Source: an uncultured archaeon
GTDB lineage: Archaea > Thermoproteota > Bathyarchaeia > TCS64
Direction of reading: 5' to 3'
DNA length: 64,000 nt
NCBI GenBank assembly: GCA_938048735.1
Contig: CALIUM010000011.1
Coordinates: forward strand, 24,816 to 88,815
Shown piece after piece: positions 33,582 to 41,700 of the stretch (position 1 is the stretch's first letter; each line of letters begins with the position of its first letter). A program made the position numbers and the translations under genes. The notes below the pieces were generated by a model, which was given only the letters and a program-made list of their open reading frames with translations, did not search any database and was not told the DNA's origin.

Positions 33582-34562
33582 ATGAAAACAAAAATACCAT
33601 TAGTATGCTTAATTATAATATCTATATCAATTATGGTTATTCCATCTCATTGTGCAGAAGAAGGAGGATGGATCTCATGGTATAAAGTAGAAGATTTAAA
33701 GACGAAAAAATTGATAATGGAAAAAGATCTTATAACAGGAAATGAAAAAATCTATGAACCTGTACTTAGCGGTGCAGAATATAATGTAACTGTTGTTTTA
33801 AATATCGCTGTAACTGTACCTCGATCTGTTTTGAAGATCAATACATCATTAGAACGTGCAAGCTTGTTGGATAGGTTTTGGGAGCTTCACACTAAAGATT
33901 ATCCTATGGTTAATTATAATCCAAGTGAAAAAGCTGTAAGATTTAACCAGGTCAAAGGAAATCTTACAATATCAATGTATGGAAGAATTCCTCAAAATAT
34001 AACAGAAAAAATTTTTAACGGATATGTTATTAATAAAGCGGTTGATTATTCCGTTTTAGAATTGAGAGGTCCAAACGATGAAATATTAGATTATTTATCT
34101 TTCAATGTGATAGATTCAAAAATTCATGAATATCGAAATTTGTTAAGGTCAAAAGAAAATGATTTGAAAAATATTAAAAATCAAGGAGTAATAAGTTCAT
34201 ATGTTAAGTTATATGAAAAAATGTTAAATCAATCAAAGTTTGAGGCAGAAAAGGGTTTCATAGATAATGCCATAAAAATATTGAATTTGTTATCTATAGA
34301 AGGAGCTCCCAAAGAACCAACCCCATCAATTTTAGAAACATTATTTTACCCAACTGTTTTGATACTAATAGGTGTGATTGTATTTACCGGATTCATGTTT
34401 CAAAGAAGCAGAGCTAAATTGAATTATACCTTAATGGTGGTTGAAGAACAAGTCAAAGAGCTGGAGGGTCTAGGGGTCAGATTATCTAAAATAGATAAAA
34501 ATATTTCTTTAAATTTGGATGGTATTAAAGATAGGCTGAAAAGGTTGGTTGGGGTGTCCTGA
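33582..34562 (+). CDS. Type-I membrane protein: signal peptide, ~220-aa extracellular domain with several N-glycosylation sequons, single TM helix, ~55-aa cytoplasmic tail
   Basis: N-terminal LVCLIIISISIMVIPSHC; NVT/NTS/NLT/NIT sequons; TM TVLILIGVIVFTGFMF followed by QRSRAK; the stop overlaps the next gene start (translational coupling). Confidence 0.6.
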   Translation: MKTKIPLVCLIIISISIMVIPSHCAEEGGWISWYKVEDLKTKKLIMEKDLITGNEKIYEPVLSGAEYNVTVVLNIAVTVPRSVLKINTSLERASLLDRFWELHTKDYPMVNYNPSEKAVRFNQVKGNLTISMYGRIPQNITEKIFNGYVINKAVDYSVLELRGPNDEILDYLSFNVIDSKIHEYRNLLRSKENDLKNIKNQGVISSYVKLYEKMLNQSKFEAEKGFIDNAIKILNLLSIEGAPKEPTPSILETLFYPTVLILIGVIVFTGFMFQRSRAKLNYTLMVVEEQVKELEGLGVRLSKIDKNISLNLDGIKDRLKRLVGVS

Positions 34563-37218
34563 TTTGTCAAAACAGCCCTCTAACATAATTCACCTAATAG
34601 GTTTAGGTTCCGCTGGGACGAATATAGTTGAAGCCTTTATTTCAAGTAAGAAAACCATGAACTTATTAGAAAATGAAAATACTCGCCTATCCCTTTTAGC
34701 TATAGATGTTGCAGATCCAGATATCAGAAGTTTGCAGGAAACATATAGTAAATTATTAAAGGAGATGAAAGATAAGGGCATACCTAAAGAAAGAATTTCT
34801 CTAATAGCTCAATCCATTAAATTTCCAACCGCTGAAGCTATGTTTGACTTTATAAATGAAAAATATAAAGATCATTTAATTAGTGAGGGTGTAACTCTTG
34901 AGGAATATTCCCCGTGGTTGCCTTCAACGATGGCGATACCACCTCTAGCAGGAGGCGCTGGTAGGAGAAGAGCTCTGGCTAAGGCGATATACGCCTTAAA
35001 CTATTACCAACTTGGAATCATAAGAAACTTCTTGAACTCTTTCAAGGAACAGGCCCTCTCATCGATAATGACCCCAATAGTGATGATCATCTACGGGATA
35101 GGTGGGGGGACCGGGAGCGGGATAGCCTTCGAGTTCGCTAGGCACCTCAGGAAGGTTCTAGGTTCAGGAGTTCCGATCATAGGCATGTCCATCCTTCCAT
35201 GCAGGGGGGATGACCCGCCCGCCAAGGGCTGCTCGGCCTTCTCCTCGTTAACCGAACTCTCACTGCTGTTGAATAAGGACTATAACGATTATATATGCAA
35301 GAATTATGGTGAATTCTATAGAAACCCCTTCAACGCATTTATATGCATTCCACTAACTCCAGCATATTCAAATACAGGGAACATAATAGTAGCTAGAAAA
35401 GATATCGATGAAATGATTATAGATATAATATATATGTTAATGGATTTTGATTTATCTGATCTATTAGGGGGAATAGGAACTGAAGTAGGGTTAACCGAAG
35501 ATTATATTCATACAATAAGTATGACAAAAGTTGTTTATCCAGTAGATGAATATATAGATGCTTTTAAAATATACTTAGATAGAATACAAACTTTATACGA
35601 ATTCAGAAAAGAGAAACTTGAAATAATAAACAATATTAATGAAATATTGATGCTAAGATATAATGATATAAAGGAAATCCTAAAAATGTATTTGATAAAA
35701 ACAGGAACATATGTGGAAGAACAATTCGATGAAAAAACTAAATCCATAATAAGGAGCTCATCAAGATTTAACGAAGATTATTGGTTATATATCAAAGGAG
35801 TAGAAGATCAAATAAAAAATTGGATTAGTGAATTGTCAAAATTCTTGACAACAATAAAATTGACAGCTAAAACCGGGACAATAGAAGACGCCATTGTCAA
35901 TTTAACACTCCACAAAGAGGAATCAAGGGAAATGGATAATCTCGAAGATCTATTAACAAATATCACAAAAACATACATTGAATTCCCAGAAAAAAAGGGG
36001 ATAATTTTTGAAAGATTAAAACAGTTAATTCCAAGCTCACAAATACTTACTATAAGACAGAAAAGGATTTTAGATGATTTAATGAACATTACAGAAATTG
36101 TAGATAAAACTCTCCAAATATTTAAATTATATAATGAATCCAGATTTTTAACAGAAACATTAATTAGATATTACTCAGCAATTCCTGAAACAGAATCAAT
36201 ATCGAGAGAATTAAAAGAGATCAGAACAGAACTTACATGTTTATACTATATTGTCCAACTAATCTTGAAAACCCCATTAGATGAAGCTAAAATAATAGAT
36301 GAAAATTTGACTTATCTTCAAGGAATCATAAATAAGATAAGGGATGAAATTAACGTTATAAATGAGGAAATATTGAGAATGGAAGAATCGAAAAAGAGAA
36401 AGGAATTTGATCGTACAAAGTATGAACAAGAAATTGGAAGGTTTTTTGGAATAGGTAGAAGAAAATATATTAAAGAAAAACTGGCTAAGTTAGAGATTGA
36501 TATAAAAAGAATCGAGGAAGAGAAAATTTATTTAGAGAAAAATGCCAAAGATTATGATGTTTTACTAAGATCTTATAATAACTTGATGAGAAAAATTGAT
36601 GTCACTTCAGATTATAGAAGAAAGTTGAACAAGATTATAGAATTATATGGCGCCTATCAAGATAAGATATCTGATGTTCTTAAACCAAAAAAATATTTTG
36701 AAAAGACAACCGAACTAACTGAAACAGAACAAGTAAAAATAATATATAAAATTTTAGCCGAACAAGAGGAAGATTTATCAAGAGAAGGTATCTTAAAAGA
36801 AATCCTTGATACAGATCATTTTAAGGACTATATGAAAAGTGTGATTAGGATTTTCAGGACTCCAAGTTTTATGGGTTTAAATACATCATTTAAATCAGAT
36901 TACATATGGGTAACAGTTCAGACCCCCCAGGGTCTTTGGAATGAAGAATTAACTCAAGAGATTTACACTGTTTTAGCAGGATATATTGTGGGAGAAGTAT
37001 CAAGGAATGTTACAATTAGAATAATAGATTCAAGGGATCCATGGACGATAAGGATTCTTGTTGTAGGTGGAAGAGGAAAACCTATGAATTTAGAAACATA
37101 TGATGAGATGCATGTGCTTTACAATAAATCAACAGAATTTGAAAAACAACTTTCTAGATCCTTTTTAATTGAGCATGAAATCAACATTAATAAGATTATC
37201 GATAAAATAAATCTTTAG
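34549..37218 (+). CDS. Divergent FtsZ/tubulin-superfamily GTPase (N-terminal ~330 aa) fused to a ~560-aa coiled-coil-rich C-terminal region
   Basis: T1-like IGLGSAGTN; T2/T3-like LLAIDVADPD and AGGAGRRRALAKA; T4 tubulin signature GIGGGTGSG; T5-like MSILPCRGDDPPAKG; the remainder is heptad-rich K/E/I/L sequence. Confidence 0.7.
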   Translation: MGCPDLSKQPSNIIHLIGLGSAGTNIVEAFISSKKTMNLLENENTRLSLLAIDVADPDIRSLQETYSKLLKEMKDKGIPKERISLIAQSIKFPTAEAMFDFINEKYKDHLISEGVTLEEYSPWLPSTMAIPPLAGGAGRRRALAKAIYALNYYQLGIIRNFLNSFKEQALSSIMTPIVMIIYGIGGGTGSGIAFEFARHLRKVLGSGVPIIGMSILPCRGDDPPAKGCSAFSSLTELSLLLNKDYNDYICKNYGEFYRNPFNAFICIPLTPAYSNTGNIIVARKDIDEMIIDIIYMLMDFDLSDLLGGIGTEVGLTEDYIHTISMTKVVYPVDEYIDAFKIYLDRIQTLYEFRKEKLEIINNINEILMLRYNDIKEILKMYLIKTGTYVEEQFDEKTKSIIRSSSRFNEDYWLYIKGVEDQIKNWISELSKFLTTIKLTAKTGTIEDAIVNLTLHKEESREMDNLEDLLTNITKTYIEFPEKKGIIFERLKQLIPSSQILTIRQKRILDDLMNITEIVDKTLQIFKLYNESRFLTETLIRYYSAIPETESISRELKEIRTELTCLYYIVQLILKTPLDEAKIIDENLTYLQGIINKIRDEINVINEEILRMEESKKRKEFDRTKYEQEIGRFFGIGRRKYIKEKLAKLEIDIKRIEEEKIYLEKNAKDYDVLLRSYNNLMRKIDVTSDYRRKLNKIIELYGAYQDKISDVLKPKKYFEKTTELTETEQVKIIYKILAEQEEDLSREGILKEILDTDHFKDYMKSVIRIFRTPSFMGLNTSFKSDYIWVTVQTPQGLWNEELTQEIYTVLAGYIVGEVSRNVTIRIIDSRDPWTIRILVVGGRGKPMNLETYDEMHVLYNKSTEFEKQLSRSFLIEHEININKIIDKINL

Positions 37219-37269: not shown

Positions 37270-38445
37270 TTACCCTAAAACATCTTTAAATTTTACTTTA
37301 TCTATTATACCTTTTTTAGTTAGGTATTCAATTGTTTCTCTTGATTTCTCTTCTAATAAATTCAAAATTTTTTCTTCATTAAAACCTCCAACTATAATCA
37401 TAATATCTATTCTGTCATTTGTTTCGTCTATAAAAATAGGATCACTAATATATATTGCTTTTGGTGTTGACTTTTCTCTTATCCATCTTATAAAGGTGGA
37501 TTCGATTTTTTCTTTGGTAATTTCACCCCTCAATTTAACTGGGATCCTGGCTAACACATAAAAAATATATGATTCTTTTAAATCAAAATTTAAGAGCGTT
37601 CTATATAACATTGAATTAAATATGTTTTCTAGAGAATCATAAATTTTCAGGCTGCAACCAGTAGAAATTAATATTGTATATAATTTAATATCGAAGTATT
37701 TTGAAAATCTTATAAAATCATTCACGAAACTCACTTTAGATAACATCAACCCTAGAATTTCATTCAGGATCATGCTCCCTTTAATTAAATTACCTTTCCT
37801 GTCAACTCCAACATAGTCTTCTAGAAGATCTCTGTTTATTATAAAGATTGGATAAAATCCTTTATTTATGCAAATAGTTATTGATGATACAGAATTAAAA
37901 TGGGCATCGGAGGGTTGTGTTGGAGATGGTATCAAAGCTATAGAGATCAAATCTATTTTCCATTCCATTAACTTTGATGTTATATATGGAAAAAGACCAC
38001 TTCCAACCCCATCCCATGTAGATGAAACTATTAATGCAGATTTAACCTTATGTAGAAGCCTGTCTTTTAAATCTGAATCTAATAATCCTCTCTTTTCAAT
38101 ATATTCATACATATTAAAACAAAAATGTTCATCGATATTAGGGTCGACATCTATAAAACTAAAAAAATCTATTTTATCAATGAAATTTTCTATGAAGAAT
38201 TCACTTTTCTTACCAATTAGGAGAAACAAAATATCGTTAGATGATTTTAACGATAAATTTTTTAAAAAAATGTTGTTTGTATATCCACCTAAACTTATAG
38301 ATGCTCTTTCTGGTATCCTGAGTTTCAATGACCTAATATGCCTCAAAACACTTTCAAGCACATCGAATGATTCTATACTCATCAGGTCACGAAGTAAACT
38401 TTTAAAGGCCTTACAAATAAATATTATGAATGAAGGCCATGCCAC
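37270..38445 (-). CDS. Degenerate FtsZ/tubulin-like paralog (possible pseudo-GTPase partner)
   Basis: Weakened motifs at FtsZ-like spacing: SLGGYTNN (T1), FIDVDPNI (T2/3), SSTWDGVGSG (T4, vs GGGTG[ST]G), IALIPSPTQPSD (T5); the start is probably the internal MSIESF (38382). Confidence 0.5.
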   Translation of the reverse strand: MAWPSFIIFICKAFKSLLRDLMSIESFDVLESVLRHIRSLKLRIPERASISLGGYTNNIFLKNLSLKSSNDILFLLIGKKSEFFIENFIDKIDFFSFIDVDPNIDEHFCFNMYEYIEKRGLLDSDLKDRLLHKVKSALIVSSTWDGVGSGLFPYITSKLMEWKIDLISIALIPSPTQPSDAHFNSVSSITICINKGFYPIFIINRDLLEDYVGVDRKGNLIKGSMILNEILGLMLSKVSFVNDFIRFSKYFDIKLYTILISTGCSLKIYDSLENIFNSMLYRTLLNFDLKESYIFYVLARIPVKLRGEITKEKIESTFIRWIREKSTPKAIYISDPIFIDETNDRIDIMIIVGGFNEEKILNLLEEKSRETIEYLTKKGIIDKVKFKDVLG

Positions 38446-40784
38446 GATTACATGATTCAGTTAAATTCATCCAAAGAATAATTAAAATTTTTACTTTTTC
38501 AGTTTCTTTTTCCGCCCTTTCTATGGGCCTTTCCTTCATTCCACTTCTTCCTCAACCCATACCACTAATAATATCTTTCATCATTTCTTTTTTAATACTG
38601 AATAATCGCAGAGAGGGAATGATTATGGGAAGCTTTCTAATTGGATTAGGATTAATATATCATTTGAGTAGAATAAACCTTATTTTAATACTTGGAAGCA
38701 CTGAAACAAAACTACTTTTTTTAAGTATTTTAATAATTTTTTTCCTTTTTACCCCAATAATTGCAAAAATATATGAAGATATCATAGCTATTTCTATTGG
38801 AATCATCGCTGCATCAATGCTTTTTTTCAATCAAATATACTTTTTCGCAGTACCCCTAATAATAGTTTTTGCAGGGATATACAAAAAACAAAGGATATGG
38901 CTAACATTATCATATTATGCTGTTATCTCGATTCCAATACAAATAATGCAATACATAAAATACATTTACAATGAAGAATATCATACTCTACCACCTTTAT
39001 ATGTTCCATTATCAGAAATCTTTAACGATATACAAGAATCAATGAAAAAAATAAGTATAAATGAAATATCAAGGGTTTTAGATATTATTTCTGGGCAGTT
39101 TAAATCGAGGTCAGACTCAACACTAAAATTCATGATAAATGCCGTATCTGAATATATAAACTCATTTCCAGGAGTCATTTTCTTTTTGATAATAATGTTC
39201 AGCCTTGTTTCCATAACTGCCTACATAATGTCTAATTCATTGAAAATCATCGAAAGTATGGAGATAACAAAAAAATATTCCAAATTCCTAGAAATATTTT
39301 TTTCAGTTATCACTGTAACGATAATTACAACACTATTCTATACATTTCTTATAATTCTTCAAGAACCATTATCCTACGTGGCAGAAATAAATCTTTTCAA
39401 CACAATGGCAGGCATTATTGGAACAGTATTAACTACCATCCCAATTTCCTTCATAAATTATGAGATGAAAATCAGCAAAATAATAGAAAGGCGCTCTGAA
39501 ATAATAAGAAGAAATTCTGAAAAATTAATGGATGATATGGAAAATTTTAACGAATTAATTAGAAAAATCAGTAAAAATATCCCAGTTAATGTTGACTCTC
39601 TAAAAAGTGAAGCTGTTTCAATTGAGGAAAAAATTAAAGATATATTGGATAATATAAAATATGGAATTTATGGTTTAACAGATTTGGAAAGTAAAATTTC
39701 AGCAATAGATACTGAAATAAAAGATGAAGTAAATAATTTATACAAAAAATTAAATACTGTATTGAATGAATATTATAGGAATGAAGACTATGACTTCAAT
39801 ACATTGCTAGAAAATTATAAAAAAATAGGAATTGAAATAAATGGCGAGATATCAATAAATTACATAGATGATGAACCAATAGAAATAAAAATAGAGAAAA
39901 TAGAAATGATGCTAAATAAGCAATGGGAAATAACTGAAAAAATTTTAGACATATATGAAAAAATATATAACATACTAAGAAATTATTATGATCCTTTACT
40001 TCCAGAAGAAAATCCTACTCTGGCTATTGCAAAACAAAAATTTCAAGAAAGGCAGTTTCCATGCGTTATCCTAGAGGCAGTATATATCTCGATTAATAAT
40101 CTGGAAATGCAATACTCAAAAGAAATATCTAATACTATTAACAGGTTAATTGAACTTATGAATTCAACAAAAAACATTTATATAAATAAAGAAAAATCAA
40201 CGATCTTAAGTAAGGAAATTCGTGATAGATTAATAGATGCTGAAAATAAGGTAAATAATTTAATAGAGATATCTGAGAAAAAAGTTTTCACTATAACTAA
40301 GGTTATTAAAGTAAACGAAATAATAAATGAATATGTAAAAATATATAAAGAGATGTTTCAAGACATATACGAAGAAATAACTCTAAAAGAAGGTCATATC
40401 GAAAAATTAGCAATTAGTGAGGGAATAAAATTTACAAAAAACAATCAAGTAAAAGACAAAATAATTTACATTTTAGAAACCCTAAAACGGCCTCATATTT
40501 ATAATATTAATGAAACTATAATTAATTTAGAAAAGTTTTTAATGCAAATTGATGAATGTTTCGAAATTATATCTAATTATAATGAAACTGAGGAAATCCT
40601 AGCGAACTACGAGATTTCAGAGTTAATTATGAAAAAACTATTAAGAGAAAAGGGATTAATAAAAATAAATGAACTTCCATTCAAAAAAGAAATTGCAAAA
40701 AAATATATGGAGATTTTCAGTCAGCGATATAAAAAAGATGTGATGCTTGATTTTGAAACATTTACAATTTACAGAGGGGATTAA
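38430..40784 (+). CDS. Polytopic membrane protein (~8 TM helices, N-terminal ~330 aa) with a ~450-aa coiled-coil cytoplasmic domain
   Basis: Multiple long hydrophobic segments followed by heptad-rich Lys/Glu/Ile/Asn sequence; AT-rich codon usage. Confidence 0.6.
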   Translation: MKAMPRLHDSVKFIQRIIKIFTFSVSFSALSMGLSFIPLLPQPIPLIISFIISFLILNNRREGMIMGSFLIGLGLIYHLSRINLILILGSTETKLLFLSILIIFFLFTPIIAKIYEDIIAISIGIIAASMLFFNQIYFFAVPLIIVFAGIYKKQRIWLTLSYYAVISIPIQIMQYIKYIYNEEYHTLPPLYVPLSEIFNDIQESMKKISINEISRVLDIISGQFKSRSDSTLKFMINAVSEYINSFPGVIFFLIIMFSLVSITAYIMSNSLKIIESMEITKKYSKFLEIFFSVITVTIITTLFYTFLIILQEPLSYVAEINLFNTMAGIIGTVLTTIPISFINYEMKISKIIERRSEIIRRNSEKLMDDMENFNELIRKISKNIPVNVDSLKSEAVSIEEKIKDILDNIKYGIYGLTDLESKISAIDTEIKDEVNNLYKKLNTVLNEYYRNEDYDFNTLLENYKKIGIEINGEISINYIDDEPIEIKIEKIEMMLNKQWEITEKILDIYEKIYNILRNYYDPLLPEENPTLAIAKQKFQERQFPCVILEAVYISINNLEMQYSKEISNTINRLIELMNSTKNIYINKEKSTILSKEIRDRLIDAENKVNNLIEISEKKVFTITKVIKVNEIINEYVKIYKEMFQDIYEEITLKEGHIEKLAISEGIKFTKNNQVKDKIIYILETLKRPHIYNINETIINLEKFLMQIDECFEIISNYNETEEILANYEISELIMKKLLREKGLIKINELPFKKEIAKKYMEIFSQRYKKDVMLDFETFTIYRGD

Positions 40785-41700
40785 AATGTATTCGTTTCAA
40801 GGATATAAAGTAGGTTTAGGCAATATCAAATTGGATATATTTGATGATCGAATTGAAATATATCTTGAAAGAGGTTATCTAAAAAAGAGTAAAGAAGTTG
40901 TGAAGGTAATTTATTTTAAAGAGATCAATAAGCTTGAAACCAATAATAATGACCTTATTATTTACTTTACTAGTGGTGAAATATATAATATAAGTTTCGA
41001 ACAAAGAGAAATATTGAAAAATATATATGATGAGTTAATTGTTATCTTAACGAAAATTAATGGCAATACTGACCGCAAAATCAGTGCAACTATGTTAACT
41101 GATTTAACTAAAAAATCTATTTGTTTGATTGATTTTTTATTTGATGTTGTTTTAAACTTACGGGGCAAAATTTTCTGGGAAAATTTAGAAAAGAATCTAA
41201 AAGATATGAAGAAAGTTTATGAAGATATTAAAGCAATTTATAATAATTTTGTGGATCTCGAATTTATGGAGGTTGAGAAAAACATAACTGATCGTAATCC
41301 TGAACAGATCCCCCTGAAGGTGTTTGATTATGTAAAACTAATATTGTCTTTTTATAGAGGTTTAGAAAAAATTGATGATAAAGATTTGATTATTTTAAAA
41401 TCTAAAATTATGGATTTTTCAAAAATTATTGAATCTGAGATATTATTGAACGATATAATAATAGGTATAATTCTAGGAGATGGCTTTGTCGATGAAGAAA
41501 TTGAGGTTTTTATAAATCTAATAAACCCCCTATTCAAAAAAATTAACATTACTTTAGAAAGAAGTGATATAATAAATCAATTCGAAGAACTAAAGTTTAA
41601 GGGAAAAGATTATCAAGTAATAAATAAAATTAGGAATTTCTTTAAGGATTTAGTCATGAGATATTTCTCTGGTGAAGGATTAAAGGTTTCCCTTCTATGA
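40747..41700 (+). CDS. Hypothetical soluble Lys/Ile/Glu-rich protein, last gene of the island operon
   Basis: 317 aa; overlaps the upstream gene end; no motif recognised. Confidence 0.5.
   Translation: MILKHLQFTEGIKMYSFQGYKVGLGNIKLDIFDDRIEIYLERGYLKKSKEVVKVIYFKEINKLETNNNDLIIYFTSGEIYNISFEQREILKNIYDELIVILTKINGNTDRKISATMLTDLTKKSICLIDFLFDVVLNLRGKIFWENLEKNLKDMKKVYEDIKAIYNNFVDLEFMEVEKNITDRNPEQIPLKVFDYVKLILSFYRGLEKIDDKDLIILKSKIMDFSKIIESEILLNDIIIGIILGDGFVDEEIEVFINLINPLFKKINITLERSDIINQFEELKFKGKDYQVINKIRNFFKDLVMRYFSGEGLKVSLL

Follow-up and report, generated by a model that had tools for sequence, protein, structure and literature searches.

A Bathyarchaeia FtsZl1 (Tubulin_2) protein from a conserved, membrane-associated cluster of five genes that also encodes a second, degenerate tubulin-like protein

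A stretch of 64,000 nucleotides from an uncultured archaeon of the Bathyarchaeia (the window) contains a gene, here called gene B, whose product was described in an earlier note as an FtsZ/tubulin GTPase head fused to a very long coiled-coil tail. The locus raises the questions of whether gene B encodes a genuine member of the tubulin/FtsZ superfamily, whether its architecture is new, and what its neighboring genes, A, C, D, and E, indicate about its role.

The gene B product and its GTPase domain

Gene B was present as described, at positions 34549..37218 of the forward strand, and encodes 889 residues from a TTG start. A second in-frame TTG at 34564, which is preceded by GGGGTG and lies 1 nt past the stop of the upstream gene A, would give a product of 884 residues, and is the start annotated in a homologue with 95% identity (P0001).

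Translation confirmed that the motifs listed in the earlier note occur in the order claimed: the Gly-rich T1 loop GLGSAGTN (residues 18–25, 34600–34623), AIDVADPD (residues 51–58), the T3 motif AGGAGRRR (residues 134–141, 34948–34971) and the T4 motif GIGGGTGSG (residues 183–191, 35095–35121). In the AlphaFold model of B these motifs fall at the loop positions of the fold, each in the loop following S1, S2, S3, and S4, respectively, and T1 and T4 are invariant or nearly so in the family alignments. The T5-like P-x4-G that had also been listed was imprecise, as the conserved loop after S5 in the family alignment reads LPCxGDDPPAKG. A T7-like motif, DFDLSD (35443–35460), lies between predicted helices H7 (279–298) and H8 (303–309). 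An hhalign comparison with E. coli FtsZ, whose sequence was entered by hand, aligned the T7 region with an E-value of 8.5e-4 and paired D299, D301, and D304 of B with N207, D209, and D212 of FtsZ. Both D301 and D304 are invariant in family alignments of 60 and 15 sequences and are kept even in a 1069-residue relative with 23% identity.

The Pfam Tubulin_2 profile (PF13809) matched residues 16–339 of B with an E-value of 8.8e-13 (48.7 bits against a curated cut-off of 27), spanning positions 2–346 of the 356 in the profile. The Pfam Tubulin profile also matched (E 9.6e-10), and these E-values indicated that the motifs are not chance matches. The homologues of B carry PF13809 as well, and their NCBI name is “tubulin-like domain-containing protein”. 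None of the NCBIfam FtsZ/CetZ models was reached by B, and the sole sequence-level match in a PDB profile search was a marginal one (E 0.017), in which T1 and T4 of B aligned to CetZ1. TubZ chains ranked top in a Foldseek search with B. Together, the Pfam, AlphaFold, and Foldseek analyses bore out the reading of the N-terminal part as a tubulin/FtsZ GTPase domain with intact nucleotide-binding loops, which with H7, T7, H8, and S7 occupies residues 12–330 (34582..35538). The gene B product is a genuine member of the tubulin/FtsZ-type GTPase family, in the FtsZl1 (Pfam Tubulin_2) branch.

The helical stalk and the C-terminal domain

FtsZl1 was defined in 2010 by Makarova and Koonin as an FtsZ-like N-terminal domain with an extended coiled coil and a C-terminal domain (PMC2875224), and corresponds to Pfam Tubulin_2 (PMC9871819). 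The layout of B equals that definition and its architecture is therefore not new, contrary to what the earlier note had implied, although the note was right that it is unlike that of canonical FtsZ, CetZ, TubZ, and tubulin. Were B no more than one further annotated tubulin-like protein, it would be an ordinary finding, as its eye-catching architecture is already known.

The region after the head had been described as approximately 560 heptad-rich residues ending in a small globular region. In the AlphaFold model, residues 331–715 (35539..36693) form an all-helical stalk. This region was indeed enriched in heptad periodicity, which exceeded the 95th percentile of shuffled sequence in 25% of the 28-residue segments in the stalk versus 4.5% of those in the head. 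However, the stalk has 385 residues and is broken into about 12 helices, the long ones being residues 332–385, 406–439, 502–543, 576–631, and 635–683. The C-terminal globular region was found as well, in the form of an alpha/beta domain of residues 716–889 (36694..37215). Conservation is similar in the head and the C-terminal domain and the stalk is variable. Stalk length is tightly fixed in the B subfamily (877–921 residues).

Based on its heptad periodicity, the stalk might be taken for a dimeric coiled-coil tail joining a cytomotive GTPase head to a separate cargo-binding globule, in the manner of kinesin or SMC proteins, particularly as a true dimeric coiled coil can come out folded back on itself in an AlphaFold monomer model. 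We consider this very unlikely, as the roughly 12 broken helices were modeled with high pLDDT in a protein with an overall pTM of 0.77, which implies defined intramolecular packing. In addition, a split alignment like that of B has been reported for Borg homologues, and the head has a tubulin fold, not the P-loop fold of those motors. The kinesin/SMC-like analogy was thus not sustained, the helices being predicted to form an interrupted intramolecular bundle.

The order of secondary-structure elements in the model matches the tubulin fold. Based on this order and on aligned lengths, we infer that the stalk is inserted into a single tubulin fold, between S7 and H9, and that the elements from residue 755 would represent H9-S8-H10-S9-S10-H11/12 of the tubulin C-terminal domain. 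Pfam scans of the stalk and of the C-terminal domain gave no signal, nor did a profile comparison of the latter with the gene C family, so it is the model that argues for completion of the tubulin fold. Related Borg and Halorientalis proteins have been independently reported to show the same start-and-end alignment to the CetZ structure 4b45 (bioRxiv 10.1101/2024.11.05.622173).

Neighboring genes and the conserved module

Gene A (33582..34562, forward strand) encodes 326 residues, and hydropathy and the family alignment agreed with its earlier description as a type-I membrane protein. Its product has a signal/anchor segment, an ectodomain of about 225 residues, a transmembrane helix at residues ~250–272 and a cytoplasmic helix of about 50 residues; the hydrophobic segments are residues 7–25 and 250–268, followed by a basic stretch. 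A PDB profile search with the A family gave insignificant coiled-coil matches only. The cytoplasmic helix, with the tail motif VVEDQIKDLEGL...VKDRLKRLVGM in the family alignment, is the most conserved part of A and probably binds B. The overlap of genes A and B, from which co-translation had been proposed, is 14 nt if B starts at 34549 and disappears if it starts at 34564. With either start, the coupling of B to the membrane-protein gene is tight, and it is conserved in homologous loci: A immediately precedes B in all 41 Bathyarchaeia loci, and also in Chloroflexota and Nitrososphaeria, with 4-nt overlaps in four loci (L001, L004, L007, and L009).

Downstream of B, on the opposite strand, lies gene C (37270..38379), which encodes a complete tubulin/FtsZ-fold protein of 369 residues, as determined by family alignment, AlphaFold, and Foldseek. 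Its ORF reaches 38445; its homologues begin at a Met at 38379. The AlphaFold model of C (pLDDT 87.7, pTM 0.87) had tubulin, TubZ, CetZ, and FtsZ as its top Foldseek matches (E ~1e-14, TM 0.65–0.70), and the best sequence match in a PDB profile search was the Asgard tubulin AtubB2 (E 0.0019). The nucleotide-binding loops of C are degenerate, T1 being GGY/GEY and T4 WDGVGSG, and C is without the T7 acidic motif. Its orthologues in Chloroflexota retain GGGTGSG (Pfam Tubulin E 9.9e-11), so the GTP site is intact there and decayed in Bathyarchaeia. Comparison of the C family with FtsZ by hhalign gave only E 0.3, and that of B with C was marginal (E 0.03–0.07) until the Chloroflexota C sequences were added (E 5e-5). 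We rejected the identification of C as an artubulin or a canonical FtsZ, based on its 11–15% identity to any solved tubulin or FtsZ and its decayed GTP motifs. Neither C, with its adjacent opposite-strand position, nor the five-gene module featured in the earlier note.

Gene D (38430..40784, forward strand) encodes a polytopic membrane protein of 784 residues, with about 7–9 transmembrane segments within residues 1–340 and a cytoplasmic helical region of about 440 residues. It is conserved beside B and C in all loci. Apart from a weak match to LeoA (E 0.004) it matched no known family, and a PDB profile search with the D family gave insignificant coiled-coil matches only. Gene E (40747..41700, forward strand), which overlaps the end of D, encodes a soluble protein of 317 residues of unknown fold. 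Homologues of E found by jackhmmer are in the matching position in five loci (L002, L004, L042, L044, and L046) and upstream of A in L001; in most of the remaining Bathyarchaeia loci the flanking sequence yielded none.

Genes A to E form a module in which B is the best-conserved member. Genes A, B, C, and D occur together in 41 of 41 Bathyarchaeia loci with differing flanks, and the module is also found, with rearranged gene order, in Dehalococcoidia (Chloroflexota) and Nitrososphaeria. The new finding is that an FtsZl1 protein is encoded within a conserved, membrane-associated cluster of five genes, one of which specifies a second, degenerate tubulin-like protein. In some loci (L023, L029, L030, L040, and L041) B, C, and D are fragmented. 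We set aside the view that these are pseudogenes and presumed frameshift errors, because the affected loci all come from one assembly series (“MFD”).

In the genome studied here the module is a sharp compositional island, with 29% GC against a background of 53% and GC3 of 0.22–0.29 against 0.58–0.74; its position in the genome differs between lineages. These features, the occurrence of the module in both archaea and Chloroflexota, and a HEPN-MNT pair 2.6 kb upstream would suit a horizontally spread anti-virus or conflict system, with a tubulin-type NTPase as sensor or switch and D as effector. This seems to us quite improbable. Scans of all five proteins against NCBIfam, PADLOC, and PHROGs gave nothing significant; in PADLOC-DB 2.0, A, B, C, and E were without a match and D had a weak one only, to LeoA (E 0.004). 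No nuclease, protease, or other recognizable effector domain was found, and the genes flanking the module are housekeeping genes. The HEPN-MNT pair is absent in a syntenic relative and is therefore unrelated to the module. Moreover, B is 56–66% identical across Bathyarchaeia and the module has been retained at the same locus through speciation, unlike fast-turnover defense islands.

The foreign base composition, the rank of TubZ chains among the Foldseek matches, and the related Tubulin_2 genes on Rhodococcus megaplasmids and Borg elements could instead suggest a TubZ-like DNA-segregation or mobile-element protein, the AT-rich island being an integrated element. However, no TubR-like DNA-binding gene, integrase, or transposase was found at the module, searches around the island for att-like flanking direct repeats or an iteron array gave short AT-rich chance matches only, and a tRNA-Ala gene 1.8 kb away lies outside the island. 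No relatives were found in 2.9 million viral contigs with the patterns used, and there were no PHROG matches. As the module has two integral membrane proteins among its five products and the modules of other lineages have the GC content of their genomes, we regard this explanation as extremely improbable.

Proposed function and comparison with known systems

The module most likely has a membrane-anchored cytoskeletal or remodeling function. In the explanation that we favor, by a modest degree, it is a GTP-dependent, membrane-anchored cytoskeletal or remodeling assembly in which the stalk of B is inserted into one complete tubulin fold. The stalk would sit at the position of the tubulin M-loop, facing sideways from the protofilament, and B would work with A, C, D, and E, the cytoplasmic helix of A binding B. 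In this scheme B would bind GTP and form head-to-tail contacts with other copies of B or with C, each subunit supplying the T7 aspartates that complete the active site of the next. Through its laterally projecting stalks the assembly would be connected to A and D in the membrane, and it would shape or remodel the membrane or cell envelope. Two points count against this explanation: the 385-residue insert could block lateral or longitudinal contacts, and E was not found near the module in most Bathyarchaeia loci.

Membrane remodeling was proposed for FtsZl1 in 2010 (PMC2875224). Domains of the vWA, protein kinase, P-loop GTPase, and OmpA types were found neither in A, C, D, or E nor in the Chloroflexota and Nitrososphaeria modules, so the basis of that proposal is missing here. 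In the literature searched we found no experimental work on FtsZl1/Tubulin_2 proteins, so the GTPase activity, polymerization, and function of B are predictions.

Alternatively, B could be a non-polymerizing, GTP-regulated switch or scaffold, for example in a B-C heterodimer that gates or assembles an A/D complex for transport or signaling. Transport or signaling had been suggested by Reviewer 1 of the 2010 paper, and the authors, in reply, allowed that FtsZl1 may not form filaments (PMC2875224). The loss of the GTP motifs of C in archaea resembles that in pseudo-enzyme partners, and D is a large polytopic membrane protein. Nonetheless, we think this unlikely, because the T7 aspartates are invariant, which points to activation of hydrolysis in trans through a longitudinal contact of the tubulin type, although a heterodimer would also use that contact, and because all characterized members of the superfamily polymerize, according to the 2010 authors (PMC2875224).

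A bolder version of the favored membrane-anchored assembly, which we offer as a speculation with rather little weight, is that the module is an unrecognized two-tubulin cytoskeletal machine, anchored to the membrane and common to TACK archaea and Chloroflexota, in which B forms GTP-driven protofilaments. The M-loop-position stalks of B would take the place of lateral contacts between protofilaments and fasten the polymer to A and D. C would serve as a nucleotide-dead subunit for capping or pairing, derived from a GTP-competent ancestor of the kind that Chloroflexota retain. If correct, this would parallel the division of labor between alpha- and beta-tubulin and represent a new form of tubulin polymer-membrane coupling.

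Within the tubulin/FtsZ superfamily, FtsZl1 is the branch that has diverged furthest, and this locus presents a compact, strongly conserved, and clearly delimited FtsZl1 system, with one catalytic tubulin, one decayed tubulin, and two membrane proteins. The 2010 question of whether FtsZl1 proteins polymerize, and of how they contact the membrane, becomes a set of testable predictions concerning T7 mutants, B-C pairing, the A tail, and stalk position. As the module is widespread in Bathyarchaeia, which are highly abundant uncultured sediment archaea, it may have a genuine role in the biology of their cells.

Among known systems, TubZ and PhuZ differ from B in that no TubR or centromere partner was found for B, whose context is chromosomal and includes membrane proteins. 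CetZ (PDB 4b45 and 3zid) shares 18% identity with B and is a compact, two-domain protein of about 330–400 residues, with neither the stalk insertion of the 889-residue B nor a dedicated membrane-protein operon. In alpha/beta-tubulin, BtubA/B, and the Asgard AtubA/B two tubulin-fold genes are likewise paired, as B and C are co-conserved in the module. However, B and C are only marginally similar and C is on the opposite strand in Bathyarchaeia; a B-C heterodimer is hypothetical. The Borg subfam2487 and Halorientalis regularis A0A1G7LXG2 proteins, likened to B by description (bioRxiv 10.1101/2024.11.05.622173), have about 1057 residues and occur on extrachromosomal elements or in haloarchaea. 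The closest counterpart is FtsZl1 itself, typified by Huta_2051 of Halorhabdus utahensis, with which B shares the FtsZ-like N-terminal domain with GGGTG(S/T)G, the family-specific inserts between T1 and T4, the long central coiled-coil/helical region, the C-terminal domain, and membrane-protein neighbors. The B subfamily is shorter, with a fixed stalk length; a T7-like loop is recognizable in B, whereas T6-H7 could not be located in FtsZl1 in 2010 (PMC2875224); and the C-terminal domain is alpha/beta in the model of B, in contrast to “mostly alpha-helical” in the FtsZl1 description. An operon with a vWA protein and often a protein kinase, a P-loop GTPase, and OmpA is typical of FtsZl1, as an association and not a requirement for membership (PMC2875224); the B module has a second tubulin-fold gene instead.

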